In this document: one piece after another, positions 10,132 through 22,957 of the stretch
Numbering within the stretch: the stretch's first letter is position 1
How the letters are laid out: every line of letters starts with the position of its first letter
Virus record (IMG/VR): IMGVR_UViG_3300005512_000266
Location: 1 to 27,525 of that record
DNA length: 27,525 nucleotides
Direction: 5' to 3' (one strand)
Origin: a virus
Taxonomy: Duplodnaviria; Caudoviricetes
The notes under the pieces: generated by a model
The model's database searches: none
Told to the model about the DNA's origin: nothing
What the model saw: only the letters and a program-made list of their open reading frames with translations
Translations under genes and position numbers: made by a program

Positions 10132-11802
10132 ATGAACGACGTAAGAACAAATCTACATCTACAAAATATCATGCAAGGCGTGCAAACATTACAAGACCTT
10201 GGGATTGATAAACTACCTCCGGAAGAACAGGAGAAAGCCCTCGAAGCCATAACGACGCCAATGCACGGAGGTGGTATCGATAACTACCGCCAGAGAAGTG
10301 GCAGGGTTACTCCGAAACTTCAGAGCGAGGAAACCTCGAGTGTCCAGAACGGTAGTGATGCCACCCCTCGAAGATGGTTTGGAAATGCCAGGAATCACGG
10401 CAATACCAGAGAAAGGCTTGAAAAGATCGAGGATCGTGGACGGGATTTCTATACAGGCGTTGGTGATACGCTTGGCATGCTTGTTGGAATCGCACCGTCA
10501 TACACCGAAGAATCGCTTCAGGGGAGATTCCCGGTATTTGAACAAAGAAATGGAAGGCCCCCGTCAACGAGATCAGAGATCGAACAGGCTCTATACATGG
10601 AGACGGTACTCACCGATACAAACGCGGCGAAAGATGTAAATCGTGACAGGATTGGTGCGGAAACAACCTCTGCGATAGATGTAGACCGTAACAGGATTGA
10701 TGCGGAAACAACCTCTGCGATAGATGTAGACCGTAACAGGATTGATGCGGAAACAGCCTCCACGAAGGAAGTGATGTCTCATGAAACGGGCGAACTAAGA
10801 ACAAGAGGAGACGAACAGACCGAAGATCAAGCTGTGTTGCATAGTGCAAGACAAGCTGCTGATGCACGTATTCTACAGAGCAATCCATCATTACAGTCTT
10901 CGGGATCGATCGCGAAATTTAGTTCAGAAGATGAACGATCGGGCACATTGCCCGGTGGATGGGCGGATGATATTTTCGATCGGGTCGTAACGGATCAGTT
11001 CATATCACTGAAAGCCCCATCAATCAGCCAGCAGATTACGCAATATACCGATGGCGGCATGCAGATAACAGAGGCCATGACAAACCTTGACCCTGAAGCG
11101 TTAAAAGAAGCGTTTTACCAGATCATCGAAAACATGGGATGGGACCAATCCACGGTAACCGCAGCGAAAGTTGAAGCAGAAGGAATGAATCAGTCGCAGA
11201 TCGTGAATGTGATTATGGGCCTCGCGTCAATGGATGATCGCGTAATTGCCCGATACAAGCAGGAAGTGGAAGCGCGAATAAATACCGCTGACGAAGGGAA
11301 TGCTGAGCTGTATAACCAAATTGCTACTACAGCACTTGAAGGGAAGCAGAGATATAGTGAATGGCAGCCAAGTACGGCGCGGAATCCATCGGATGGTGTG
11401 TACCTTAGAGGCGATGAGCTTTCCAAAACCGCAGGGAAGATACGCAGGAATTTTGATGAGTATTTTACCGGGCTCCCTGACGTTGCGCCGGAAGAGTACG
11501 AACGGGGCCAAGAGGATGCGTATAACCTTATCAGAAATATGTTGAACGAGTTCAGCGAAAAAGAACTTCAACAAGCCGACACGTCTTCTGAAGAACTGGA
11601 AGCAGAACTTGAACAGCTTTCTGAATATGGGTGGCGTGAACACCAATACTGGGATATGCAAGGGCGTGAGGCGCTAACAAGACCGCAGTTTGTTGATATT
11701 CCAAACAGCGATATTGATAGGCTTATAGAAATCCAGAAAAGGCTAGATCAGATGCGGTCGGCAGAAATAGATTTGTGGACTCAGTACAGTGGTAACCAAT
11801 GA
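10132..11802 (+). CDS. putative internal virion/ejection protein
   Basis: 556 aa; SD AGGAGG; helical and acidic; ATGA-coupled to the large internal protein. Confidence 0.6.
   Translation: MNDVRTNLHLQNIMQGVQTLQDLGIDKLPPEEQEKALEAITTPMHGGGIDNYRQRSGRVTPKLQSEETSSVQNGSDATPRRWFGNARNHGNTRERLEKIEDRGRDFYTGVGDTLGMLVGIAPSYTEESLQGRFPVFEQRNGRPPSTRSEIEQALYMETVLTDTNAAKDVNRDRIGAETTSAIDVDRNRIDAETTSAIDVDRNRIDAETASTKEVMSHETGELRTRGDEQTEDQAVLHSARQAADARILQSNPSLQSSGSIAKFSSEDERSGTLPGGWADDIFDRVVTDQFISLKAPSISQQITQYTDGGMQITEAMTNLDPEALKEAFYQIIENMGWDQSTVTAAKVEAEGMNQSQIVNVIMGLASMDDRVIARYKQEVEARINTADEGNAELYNQIATTALEGKQRYSEWQPSTARNPSDGVYLRGDELSKTAGKIRRNFDEYFTGLPDVAPEEYERGQEDAYNLIRNMLNEFSEKELQQADTSSEELEAELEQLSEYGWREHQYWDMQGREALTRPQFVDIPNSDIDRLIEIQKRLDQMRSAEIDLWTQYSGNQ
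10633..10767 (+). repeat. 3 x 45-bp in-frame tandem repeat (15 aa, DV(N/D)R(D/N)RI(G/D)AETTSAI)
   Basis: Units start at 10633, 10678 and 10723; units 2 and 3 are identical over most of their length. Confidence 0.95.
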
Positions 11803-19596: not shown

Positions 19597-19974
19597 ATGG
19601 ACGACATCACCGAATTGGCACAACAAGTAGCAACAATAGCGAGCAAAATGGAAGATATTCACAGAGTGTTTTACCGGAACGGCTTTAAGACAAGGGTTGA
19701 TAGCATAGAAAAAGCCGTAACAGAATTCAATCTTACCAGGGAAGCGACATGCCCAGTGAAAAAAATAGAACAAGACGAGAGAACCGTAAACGAGAAAAAG
19801 CGGTTCCGTAGGATTGAAATATACATAGCCGTATTTATGGTGATTATTACGATTGTTGTGGGGATCCCTTCATGGGTAAACATGTACAACAACAACCAGC
19901 GGGAAAAAATTTTGGGTTTAGAATCCTATTCAGGCGATAAGGTGATATATGGAATCTCCAATACTACAAACTGA
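19597..19974 (+). CDS. coiled-coil single-TM membrane protein (XhlA/holin-like)
   Basis: SD AGGAG; N-terminal coiled coil, basic KKRFRR, then TM IEIYIAVFMVIITIVVGIP; first gene of the lysis cassette. Confidence 0.55.
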   Translation: MDDITELAQQVATIASKMEDIHRVFYRNGFKTRVDSIEKAVTEFNLTREATCPVKKIEQDERTVNEKKRFRRIEIYIAVFMVIITIVVGIPSWVNMYNNNQREKILGLESYSGDKVIYGISNTTN

Positions 19975-20446
19975 TGACCGATTATCCAAATATCCGGAGA
20001 TCGCAAGGGCCGGATGTCTTGTCAGATCGCTTCTCGCTATTGCTGAGGCTGATACTGGTATACTTCTTTCTGCGAAACAGATTCTTGATGCCTATGAATA
20101 TCTGCGTGAGATCAATGATGTAGATCCGTATAGGGGTGTAGAAAAAGACTGTTATGTAATGGGACATACGGATGCCATTGATATTGGTTTGCAATTACTT
20201 GGGTCCAAAAAGCAGTCATATTATATTGAGAGCCAATCGAAAAACGCCAAAGTCCGCGGCTTCAAAAGTGCAATTCCAATGTACCCGAATTACTATATCA
20301 ATCATTACAAATACTTGACCAAAGAAGGAAGAGCTGTCGGCCACTTCGTATTAGCGTCGAAGAATGGTGATACGTTATTCGATCCGTATTTCCCATGGCA
20401 CCCGCCAAAGACCTTTATGTCTTTTCGTATGTATGCCGTAGAGTAG
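19949..20446 (+). CDS. DUF261-like papain/C39-fold cysteine peptidase, candidate endolysin
   Basis: Q7..PEIARAGC23, GHFVL and LFDP give a Gln/Cys/His/Asp order; recalled similarity to the Borrelia DUF261 pattern; sits at the endolysin position; SD AAGGTG. Confidence 0.6.
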   Translation: MESPILQTDDRLSKYPEIARAGCLVRSLLAIAEADTGILLSAKQILDAYEYLREINDVDPYRGVEKDCYVMGHTDAIDIGLQLLGSKKQSYYIESQSKNAKVRGFKSAIPMYPNYYINHYKYLTKEGRAVGHFVLASKNGDTLFDPYFPWHPPKTFMSFRMYAVE

Positions 20447-20454
20447 GAGGAGGT

Positions 20455-20793
20455 ATGCGGAATGAAGCTGCGAGGAGCGCAATCTTGGCTATTGTGTTGT
20501 TTGCTTCTGGTTTTATATTCGGGACAACTTACCGCGCAGACAGCGCCAGCGCGACTATTTCAGACCTTGAAGACAGACTTGGTATCTCTACGCAGCGAAG
20601 TGAAGAGCTTGCTTCTGCAAATAGAAACCTTAGAGAGCGACAACAGGACGCTCTCGGAATCATTGAGAGAACAACAGATAATCTCGCGGCAGCAGGAGCT
20701 ACGGTCGGAAGAATTGACGACATTCTTGACCGAATCATTGGAACTGTCGCAGACCTTGAACAGGTCTATAACCTCCTTGAAGCGCCAGAATAG
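20455..20793 (+). CDS. N-terminally anchored coiled-coil protein (i-spanin-like), overlapping gene A
   Basis: Start ATG 20455 after GGAGG; MRNEAAR + TM SAILAIVLFASGFIFG + heptad coiled coil; 112 aa. Confidence 0.68.
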   Translation: MRNEAARSAILAIVLFASGFIFGTTYRADSASATISDLEDRLGISTQRSEELASANRNLRERQQDALGIIERTTDNLAAAGATVGRIDDILDRIIGTVADLEQVYNLLEAPE

Positions 20794-20884
20794 TATAAGC
20801 AGTTTGGTGTGGAAGATTGGTATCCCGACAGGGTTTCTTCTTGGAGTCGGATTAGGAGTTCGGATAAATGAGTCCTGTCGATGA
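20462..20884 (+). CDS. signal-peptide coiled-coil protein with C-terminal TM, overlapping gene B (+1 frame)
   Basis: ATG 20462 lies 7 nt after AGGAGGT; MKLR + hydrophobic core + LTA|Q; long Leu heptads; C-terminal WKIGIPTGFLLGVGLGV; 140 aa. Confidence 0.7.
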   Translation: MKLRGAQSWLLCCLLLVLYSGQLTAQTAPARLFQTLKTDLVSLRSEVKSLLLQIETLESDNRTLSESLREQQIISRQQELRSEELTTFLTESLELSQTLNRSITSLKRQNSISSLVWKIGIPTGFLLGVGLGVRINESCR

Positions 20885-21146
20885 TGGCATGCATCAGATC
20901 TATCGTGACAAGGACGGTATATTCCGGAATGAGCGCGGTCTACTTTCGATGCCGCATGTAACTGCATTCATTGCGTCGGTAATGGGTTGCGCTGTTGGAG
21001 CCTCTGGTTTGGTTGCATTTTTTCTTGGATATCAAGATTCGGTCACGCTCGTTACGACGGCATTGGGCCTTGTTGGTGCGGGGGCCGGTCTTGAGGGGTG
21101 GCAGACACACATTGAAGGGCGCAACCAGAGATACGGGGACCAGTAG
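20868..21146 (+). CDS. holin-like protein (2 TM)
   Basis: 92 aa; SD AGGAG; two hydrophobic helices and a charged C-tail; last gene of the late operon. Confidence 0.62.
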   Translation: MSPVDDGMHQIYRDKDGIFRNERGLLSMPHVTAFIASVMGCAVGASGLVAFFLGYQDSVTLVTTALGLVGAGAGLEGWQTHIEGRNQRYGDQ

Positions 21147-21274: not shown

Positions 21275-21320
21275 CAAGCTTCCCAAGCTTGAGACGCGGG
21301 TTCGACTCCCGTCGGCCGCT
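21275..21320 (+). tRNA. 3' half of tRNA-Gly(CCC) (att core; not a complete tRNA)
   Basis: Anticodon arm CAAGC-TTCCCAA-GCTTG, variable loop AGAC, T arm GCGGG-TTCGACT-CCCGT, acceptor 3' strand CGGCCGC-T. No D arm or 5' acceptor strand upstream and no CCA. Confidence 0.9.
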
Positions 21321-21332
21321 CTCCTAAATAAC

Positions 21333-21731: not shown

Positions 21732-21823
21732 ACACTCTCCTTGTGGTTTTTGTATCATGCGCTGTTTCAATTCCTGAAACAGATTTATTACCGAATTTGG
21801 CTATTACCATGTATGATTCTATC

Positions 21824-22957
21824 ATGGCTCGCTATCGGGAACCATTCTCAATTTTCAGATTCAGCAACGGATACTGGTATTTCTGGTACTACGACCGCAA
21901 CGGGGTGCGCAGAAAGAAGTCAACCGGCAAGAAACGCAAGTCATCAGCGATGACGTATGCGTATCGGTATGTGTCGGCGCTCCCGGCTTCCGGGACATTG
22001 CGTGGTTATACTAACGGATGGTTTCAGCGTGATAGCTGTCCATGGACACGCATGCGAAGCGAATCCGGAAGCGTCCCGTCTGATGCGTATCTTGCATTAC
22101 GATACGGATATCTGAACAACTATATTCTCGTCGCGTTCGGGTCGCGCATCATGTCGGATGTGACAACGCAGGAGGTCCAGTCATGGCTATACTCACTGGA
22201 TCGTTCTGCGCAGACGAAAAAGCATATCAGGAAGTGCCTGTTCGACATCTACGAATACGCACTACGGTATGACAATTCCGTACCGTCGAATCCTGTAGGT
22301 GCGGTTCCGATTCCATCTGGCGTATCTGTAAGGTACGATATTCTTACCGATGAGGAAACTGAGAGCGTTGTAAACGCCGCGCTCCGCGAGGATCCGCGCC
22401 GCGGGATTGCGCTGTACATTCTTTGGCAGACGGGTATCAGGAGCGGCGAGTTGCTTGGGCTCCGCCCGATAGACCTGATTGTTGATCCACCGTCGATCAT
22501 GGTGCGTCAGAACGTGCGTGACGCCGGGGTTGCGCGACCGAAGAGCAAGGCGTCTGTGAGAGCGACCCCTATTACTGCTGATTTACTTGCTGTTGTTCAA
22601 TTATGCATTATTGATCTGAAGGAGGCGGATCGGATTTTTCCTGAGACGCGCCGGACTCTGAGTCGTTGGTTGAACGATGCCATTGCTGCGAGTCAGGTAT
22701 CACTGCGTGGACGCCGTATCGTGATACATTCCTTTCGTAACGAACATAATTCACGTTTCCTCGGGAAAATTGATGGCGATATACTCCGGACGTCAATGGG
22801 TCATGTGTCTGAGAGGATGACAGATCGGTACGATCGGAGGTTCCTTGAGACGTTAGTTGCGATGCTTGATCCGATGCGCGCTTTTTTGCCCGTGGCGCAA
22901 CACTTCGATCGTCAGCATACGGAGCGACAATCAGGAAAAACCCGAGAAGCACCATGA
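21824..22957 (+). CDS. int: tyrosine integrase
   Basis: Arm-binding-like N-terminus (WYFWYYDRNGVRRKKSTG); catalytic R (TGIRSGE), K (PKS), HxxR (HSFR), H (MGH), Y (MTDRY). Start is ATG 21824 or 21809. Confidence 0.93.
   Translation: MARYREPFSIFRFSNGYWYFWYYDRNGVRRKKSTGKKRKSSAMTYAYRYVSALPASGTLRGYTNGWFQRDSCPWTRMRSESGSVPSDAYLALRYGYLNNYILVAFGSRIMSDVTTQEVQSWLYSLDRSAQTKKHIRKCLFDIYEYALRYDNSVPSNPVGAVPIPSGVSVRYDILTDEETESVVNAALREDPRRGIALYILWQTGIRSGELLGLRPIDLIVDPPSIMVRQNVRDAGVARPKSKASVRATPITADLLAVVQLCIIDLKEADRIFPETRRTLSRWLNDAIAASQVSLRGRRIVIHSFRNEHNSRFLGKIDGDILRTSMGHVSERMTDRYDRRFLETLVAMLDPMRAFLPVAQHFDRQHTERQSGKTREAP

Follow-up and report, generated by a model that had tools for sequence, protein, structure and literature searches.

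Introduction

In the late region of a phage genome, two genes on the same strand start 7 nt apart and share nearly all of their DNA in different frames. This arrangement raises the question of whether both frames are genes and, if so, whether their products, termed A and B, act as a spanin, i.e., a system for the fusion of inner and outer membrane at the end of lysis. According to the available text of Kongari et al. 2018 (PMC6139136), a lipoprotein is required in both spanin classes, an embedded o-spanin starts at ~0.4-0.5 of the i-spanin length, and type I inner-membrane i-spanins are named only as an unsurveyed possibility. The window studied here is the whole linear virus record of 27,525 bases (completeness 71%). 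As judged from sequence, A and B are a real, selected, fully overprinted and co-initiated pair of predicted membrane-anchored coiled coils, which is widespread in spirochaete phages and occurs repeatedly in host chromosomes.

Results

A dual-frame gene pair at the end of the late genes

The plus strand of the window carries a P22-like portal, a major head protein, an adaptor and a tail fibre, and the minus strand carries replication and recombination genes. Downstream of the tail fibre, the A/B pair lies behind a holin-like gene and a 165-aa gene; after the pair come a second holin-like gene, a 47-bp stretch shared with a tRNA gene and an integrase.

19597..19974, + strand: holin-like gene (putative role), 125 aa, ORF after the tail fibre genes; N-terminal coil and one C-terminal hydrophobic helix
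19949..20446, + strand: putative endolysin, papain/DUF261-like, 165 aa; alignment motifs Q7, G22-C23, H132-F133 and D145-P146
20444..20454, + strand: compound Shine-Dalgarno (SD) sequence TAGGAGGAGGT for both starts; AGGAGG 4 nt ahead of the ATG of A, GGAGGT 7 nt ahead of the ATG of B
20455..20793, + strand: gene A, 112 aa; N-terminal hydrophobic helix (residues ~9-25), then coiled coil and amphipathic C-terminal helix; no Cys anywhere
20462..20884, + strand: gene B, 140 aa, +1 frame; predicted cleavable signal (residues 1-25, LTA-Q, cut before Q), coiled coil (33-112), basic/Trp belt, Gly-rich C-terminal helix (115-133) and 7-residue tail
20462..20793, + strand: dual-coded segment, 332 nt; 332 of the 339 nt of A are also read as B
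20868..21146, + strand: second holin-like gene (putative role), 92 aa, two hydrophobic helices; start inside the last codons of B
21275..21321, + strand: 47-bp stretch, likely the attP core; same sequence as the 3' part of tRNA-Gly(CCC) in a Spirochaetaceae MAG
21809..22957, + strand: tyrosine integrase (family matches)

In a genome scan, the tRNA-Gly(CCC) of the Spirochaetaceae MAG was the only match to the 47-bp stretch. Together with the integrase, this identity points to a spirochaete host and a temperate phage; the window phage is thus likely a temperate podophage of a Spirochaetaceae host. In the integrated prophage the lysis cassette would stand at the very end, a position which favours the pair staying behind in the chromosome. 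Three related podophage contigs, found via the portal, gave no match to the B profile, and one of them, for which ORFs were listed, stops short of the lysis region. Elsewhere in the window, a 556-aa late protein (10132-11802, + strand) has a short tandem repeat, AETTSAIDVDRNRID-like and in ~3 copies, noted at 10591-10782 (- strand).

For the genes around the pair we infer lysis functions. The holin-like gene at 19597..19974 matched no family above cut-off. The Q, GC, HF and DP motifs of the 165-aa protein align without change to four proteins encoded upstream of the pair in homologous loci; three of the four were scanned, and all three match DUF261. Pairwise BLAST of the 165-aa protein against DUF261-type proteins was not significant (E 0.11), and it had no Pfam match; the motifs argue for a putative papain-like endolysin. 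DUF261 proteins occupy the endolysin slot of several treponemal prophages with the same papain-like Q/C/H/D motifs, and the sequences suggest that DUF261 is a peptidase endolysin family.

The initial annotation had placed the two starts at 20455 and 20462, in the +1 frame and behind one compound SD, with 332 of 339 nt shared, and these coordinates and frames were reproduced. TAGGAGGAGGT opens with the TAG stop of the upstream putative endolysin gene, and the pair lies between this gene and a holin-like gene. An alternative start of A at the in-frame ATG 20395 was rejected, as both the 82%-identical relative P0003 and the homologue on contig L006 start at the 20455 position. The SD of the second holin-like gene falls within the TM-coding region of B, so that four genes are chained (window 20868-20884); the layout on L006 is alike, with a similar gene start after the pair.

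A heptad-like helix behind an N-terminal hydrophobic helix was seen in both frames, as had been proposed, and the signal, coiled coil and Gly-rich C-terminal helix claimed for B were found at the residues listed above. AlphaFold models A and B each as a near-continuous helix (mean pLDDT 89.6 and 91.1), while the TM assignment for A comes from hydropathy only. Because the proteins share their DNA, a paired A+B alignment would carry false covariation. Neither A nor B matched a Pfam, PHROG or NCBIfam model above cut-off, the A of the window had weak PHROG Rz-like matches only (E 0.012), and a search of solved structures returned generic coiled coils only. A lipoprotein scan over all frames of the window found no SD-led lipobox ORF on the late strand.

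When the B protein was held fixed and synonymous codons were resampled, the A frame was open in 0.13% of 1,500 trials; with the A protein fixed, the B frame was open in 1.7% of trials. Across the late genes of the window, only 2/455 and 1/455 110-codon windows had an open alternative frame. Most of the pair is also found, gap-free, on a contig from a different sample (run X1), which has no stop in either frame at 16 listed differences within the pair; its depth is 3.4, so errors are possible, and the compared region holds 17 further differences beyond these 16. Among the sequencing runs listed as carrying the locus there was no RNA run.

Both frames are kept open in related loci

Profile searches of Spirochaetota genomes (overlapping samples of 151, 401, 218, 201 and 401) and of IMG/VR yielded 52 related loci in Spirochaetota genomes and phage contigs, i.e., 53 with the window. 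The pair is present in only a minority of the Spirochaetota genomes searched, and some genomes hold several copies (L084 and L108 in G239; L042 and L064 in G551; L040, L065 and L066 in G076). An exhaustive search with B found nine full-length relatives and one repeat-rich false match. One of the nine lies on contig L006, where the A frame is open in register and 49% identical, with the start of B 5 nt ahead of that of A. A word-index protein search with A found one relative among 48 candidates; with B alone, none of 50 candidates reached E<=0.01. Scans of IMG/VR with the queries A, A2 and A3 and a genome-contig scan with A3 found none, and neither the putative endolysin nor any of five B proteins had a match among INPHARED phages by tblastn. 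Look-alikes of B in the atlas (0.93) are leads only; they lie in unnamed clusters, in which Spirochaetota, Uroviricota and Bacillota are commonest.

In all 46 loci with assignable starts, the window included, B lies in the +1 frame of A, and the starts are at most 19 nt apart, where the start of A was picked by us as the NTG nearest to that of B. Start offsets were -4 in 21 loci (NTG-N-ATG), +2 in 12 (ATG-TG), -7 in six and -13 in three, with four single cases of up to 19 nt. Of the remaining seven loci, three run off the end of their contig while both frames are still open, and four are apparently decayed.

Among loci sorted by architecture, 46 were testable over a fixed range of B; in 45 of them the A frame was open, and the lone stop was the terminator of A itself (L108); L060 offered no testable range. 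The third frame was closed in all 46 tested loci, with 364 stops. As controls we used 29 unrelated coiled-coil matches, i.e., the 35 'other' matches minus six true members removed by inspection (L067, L071, L109 and L111-L113), and in none of them was either alternative frame open. Dual coding of signal or anchor plus coiled coil in both frames was kept at 12-45% identity. At L015 (1473-2291), A lacks its usual stop and reads in frame into the next phage gene, giving a 272-aa fusion.

Substitution patterns indicate selection on both proteins

The selection test compared 302 isolated substitutions, taken from 18 spanning-tree edges that join close loci, with a matched null; the pair of the window is too divergent to contribute edges. 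Changes silent in A numbered 110 of 302 against a null of 87.9+/-7.9 (P 0.006) and those silent in B 137 of 302 against 94.3+/-7.8, while only 63 of 302 altered both frames against 122+/-8. No stops were created, compared to null values of 7.2 and 10.6, and replacements were more conservative than the null in both frames. If B alone mattered, silent-in-A changes would be depleted; the excess seen therefore shows that both A and B are under purifying selection. Synonymous resampling gave median P values of ~0 and 0.0007 for the other frame staying open. Chance overlap of A and B was rejected on the basis of the resampling and the selection test. A first, crude whole-codon count had looked near neutral (320 of 600 altered both frames), but multiple hits distorted it, and the isolated-site test took its place. 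The initial annotation had made its proposal depend on homologues that keep both frames open under selection, and the open-frame counts and isolated substitutions bear this out.

Predicted membrane anchors of A and B

The anchors are at opposite ends, at the N-terminus of A and the C-terminus of B. By a simple rule, 34 of 45 B proteins have an SPase I-like site before Gln after the hydrophobic N-region; the coiled coil is followed by the basic/Trp belt (median +3), the C-terminal helix and a tail with a median of 2 residues. In agreement with the initial annotation, which saw no canonical lipobox in the B of the window, none of 44 B proteins has one after the hydrophobic region. Residues 11-45 lack Cys in eight of the 44, TP0222 of Treponema pallidum among them, and where Cys occurs its place within the hydrophobic region varies; the LLCC of the window is thus not a conserved lipidation site. 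Among the A proteins, residues 11-45 are free of Cys in 16 of 44, including that of the window, and a mid-helix (L/F)AGC occurs in several others. The amphipathic C-terminal helix is the best-kept part of A.

In seven loci (L084, L086, L106, L108, L109, L112 and L113), A has a lipobox (LSSC, FTGC, FSGC, FTSC or FTNC) followed by polar residues. These loci mostly share the same ATGAATG start pair, and one such A is named 'Lipoprotein' by its source (AAS11624.1, Treponema denticola). In exactly these seven, the C-terminal helix of B is far more hydrophobic (median -2.3 vs +1.3 elsewhere, on scale values fit for relative use only), and the tail of B is basic (+3 vs +1) and longer, like an ordinary inner-membrane stop-transfer. 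Elsewhere the helix is weak and nearly tail-less, and that of the window is the weakest of 45. The seven loci form one clade (support 90/63), so the switch of anchors was approximately one event. The kinship of this clade with the other loci rests on coiled-coil-rich profile matches, of B (97% in hhalign) and, weakly, of A (65% over 37 columns), together with the same start pair and gene layout. The clade, which the initial annotation did not cover, ties the system to two-component spanins and suggests, at the level of sequence, that the anchors can swap membranes.

The pair accompanies unrelated endolysins in phage genomes

We read the flanks of 32 of the 53 loci as phage context, and here the pair mostly follows an endolysin directly. 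The adjoining hydrolases are Amidase_2 (L006, L063), CHAP (L015, L057), M15_4 (L041), a pesticin-like lysozyme (L049), DUF261 (L050, L070, L073) and M23 (L109), so that the pair adjoins five or more unrelated endolysin families. The phages are of several types, among them the podophage of the window, a lambda-type-portal prophage and Mu-like prophages, in which the pair sits between endolysin/holin and Gp27/terminase. A constant pair next to exchanged endolysins is expected of a host-envelope-specific lysis function. On L006, a 236-aa gene (1192-1902) with no Pfam match lies between the amidase and the pair.

Chromosomal copies and TP0222 of Treponema pallidum

The other 21 loci (~20) have no phage gene in their mostly short flanks; they stand among housekeeping genes, with neither endolysin nor holin. 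In the five with 8-20 kb of context, the 46 neighbouring proteins belong to cellular families only. One chromosomal clade comprises 12 rows, the chromosomal positions are not syntenic, and four copies (L044, L045, L052 and L060) are apparently decayed. At L045, a short 5' deletion sets the start of A on the frame of B and leaves A without a start; an assembly error is possible.

By source names, the B protein of L068 (G256) is identical to TP_0222 of T. pallidum. The gene (L068, 10123-10569) stands immediately downstream of one for a VanY/M15 D,D-carboxypeptidase, in surroundings free of phage genes (rplQ, grpE, dnaK, aminotransferase), and it holds an intact, unannotated A frame with a GTG start 2 nt after the ATG of B. 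Two versions of this A frame are absent from a collection of 15 billion proteins. TP0222, i.e., B, was detected in vivo by mass spectrometry with 4 peptides, as stated in the available part of PMC10600179. The search database of that study (1,261 entries), in the form available, contains B and neither of two queried A peptides, so A could not have been detected there. The accessible text of PMC10013896 handles TP0222 as a hypothetical protein. Annotation keeps one frame, B in T. pallidum and A in one T. denticola record. TP0222 clusters with Mu-like prophage copies (95/98-level support, 11-row set), and this grouping suggests capture from a phage.

Discussion

Relation to known spanins

Judged by the available text of PMC6139136, the pair resembles lambda Rz/Rz1, the T7 spanins and P2 LysB/LysC in that two genes, one in the +1 frame of the other, share DNA and close a lysis cassette, here one with putative endolysin and holins. 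As in embedded and overlapped two-component spanins, A is type II-like, with an N-terminal TM and a coiled coil, and one clade has a lipoprotein partner. Hydropathy and the AlphaFold model together give A the single N-terminal hydrophobic helix and helical remainder of an i-spanin. In contrast to embedded spanins, as the same source describes them, the starts are 2-19 nt apart behind one SD and not at 0.4-0.5 of the i-spanin length; with at most 19 nt between starts in 46 of 46 loci, the arrangement is neither embedded, overlapped nor separated. Unlike the two-component spanins covered there, the window pair contains no lipoprotein (no Cys in A, no lipobox in 44 B proteins), and in the +1-frame B a long coiled coil is flanked by a cleavable signal and a C-terminal TM. 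Where a lipoprotein is present, i.e., in the seven-locus clade, it is A, the otherwise i-spanin-like frame.

Nor is B a unimolecular spanin, as it has a C-terminal helix and no conserved lipobox. The lipoprotein-A clade shares an N-terminal lipid anchor and a C-terminal TM with the u-spanin T1 gp11 as described in the available text of PMC6139136, whereas A/B splits the anchors over two overprinted proteins with an all-helical coiled-coil bridge, and the window pair has no lipobox. Among spanin family models there were scattered weak PHROG Rz-like matches, in at most 4 of 35 members per model, and a TIGR03495 match of 21 bits against a cut-off of 93. The earlier proposal of a topology unlike both known spanin classes is supported, as is the position in a lysis cassette.

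SH3_and_anchor proteins (TIGR04211) are like B in signal peptide, coiled coil and C-terminal TM, with a weak match below cut-off; unlike them, B has no SH3 domain, is overprinted and occurs in lysis cassettes. SNARE complexes are a further analogy, with a predicted zipper of membrane-anchored helices and, in B, a C-terminal TM that has a tiny tail and is preceded by a basic/aromatic belt. The opposite-terminus anchors of A and B would, however, need an antiparallel bundle, and we claim no sequence relationship.

In the open literature we found no description of such an A/B pair. Standard spanins are predicted in Leptospira prophages according to the available text of PMC8705779; the accessible text of bioRxiv 10.1101/606087 never mentions spanins. 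Two further hits, PMC13474147 and PMC13125913, proved in the parts available to be word matches only, not concerned with the A/B pair, and were discarded.

A probable lipid-free spanin variant and its alternatives

The pair falls outside both spanin classes yet likely works like a two-component spanin. We consider it reasonably probable that A/B is a lipid-free variant of two-component spanins, which by antiparallel zipping would fuse inner and outer membrane at the end of lysis. A would be held in the inner membrane via its uncleaved N-terminal helix, as an i-spanin-like signal-anchor. B would be exported by Sec and its signal cut at LTA-Q, and its weak Gly-rich C-terminal helix would end in the outer membrane. 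One SD would couple the synthesis of the two proteins, whose free tips, the C-end of A and the N-end of B, would meet in the periplasm. Upon removal of peptidoglycan by holin and endolysin, A and B would zip as an antiparallel coiled coil, bringing both anchors to one end so that the membranes merge. The assignment of the anchors to the two membranes in the window phage is the weakest step and could go either way: default Sec routing, which speaks against this reading, would leave both in the inner membrane and none in the outer. Antiparallel geometry is indifferent to which anchor is in which membrane, and this would explain the lipoprotein-A clade, which may represent a u-spanin topology split over two genes, with the lipid anchor outside and the TM inside.

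A bolder version, to which we give rather less credence, makes the pair a third spanin class, a fully overprinted, co-initiated, symmetric SNARE-like fusogen free of lipoprotein. Its anchors would have been swapped and hosts would repeatedly have domesticated it, with T. pallidum using TP0222 and the protein hidden in it to remodel its own envelope.

The main rival, unlikely though worth weighing, leaves both A and B in the inner membrane. There they would form a heteromeric rod in cis that aids lysis without fusion in trans; its distal amphipathic tip would destabilise the LPS-poor outer membrane of spirochaetes, or the rod would tune the timing of holin and endolysin. This is the default topology for a signal-anchor protein and for a protein of signal peptide, coil and C-terminal TM, and B has a weak similarity, short of the cut-off, to the coil and anchor of TIGR04211 (E 1.5e-6 for TP0222). 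Conservation of the amphipathic C-terminal helix of A points the same way. Holin/antiholin pairs with dual starts exist, and the co-initiation of A and B resembles them, although the cassette already holds separate holin-like genes. Against the rod, the B helix in the 38 non-lipoprotein pairs is more basic on its exported side than on its 2-residue tail and makes a poor stop-transfer, and the lipoprotein-A clade points to an arrangement across two membranes.

A pure lysis role would leave the ~20 housekeeping-context copies unexplained, since these have neither endolysin nor holin. The pair could instead be a module of the spirochaete envelope, with a role in tethering, vesiculation, division or superinfection exclusion; phages would carry it at the end of their late operon without needing it for lysis. 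A role in the host envelope accounts better for the phage-free chromosomal copies, the cellular families around five of them, the 12-row chromosomal clade, and TP0222, which is expressed in vivo according to the available part of PMC10600179 and adjoins the VanY/M15 carboxypeptidase gene; it may hold for those copies in addition. As an account of the whole family we think it improbable, given that most loci have phage surroundings, usually with an endolysin immediately ahead of the pair, that TP0222 groups with Mu-like prophage copies, suggesting phage capture, and that the chromosomal copies are not syntenic, are partly decayed and occur in a minority of the genomes searched.

It is very improbable that one frame only makes protein and the other is open by chance or codon bias: annotators keep a single frame and the detection at protein level is of B only, yet synonymous resampling, the excess of silent changes in both frames and the closed third frame all speak against it. 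Least probable of all is an ordinary spanin pair, in which A is the i-spanin and B a lipidated o-spanin whose spirochaetal lipobox is degenerate (LLCC), as Cys12-Cys13 in the B of the window and the weak PHROG Rz-like matches of A might suggest; the missing lipobox, the B proteins without Cys in residues 11-45 (including TP0222), the wandering Cys positions, the SPase I-like sites, the C-terminal TM of B and the lack of any PHROG, Pfam or NCBIfam match above cut-off led us to reject B as a lipoprotein.

Implications

The dual coding is unusually complete, with signal or anchor and coiled coil in both frames. If true, the lipoprotein-free pair would explain in concrete terms how phages of spirochaetes get past the outer membrane, and similar systems could be sought in other hosts by the same pattern. 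With only two helices it would, moreover, represent a minimal fusion machine, and its natural variants with swapped anchors directly test the fusion model. For T. pallidum, our analysis predicts an unannotated, selected protein inside TP0222, which could be confirmed from existing spectra.
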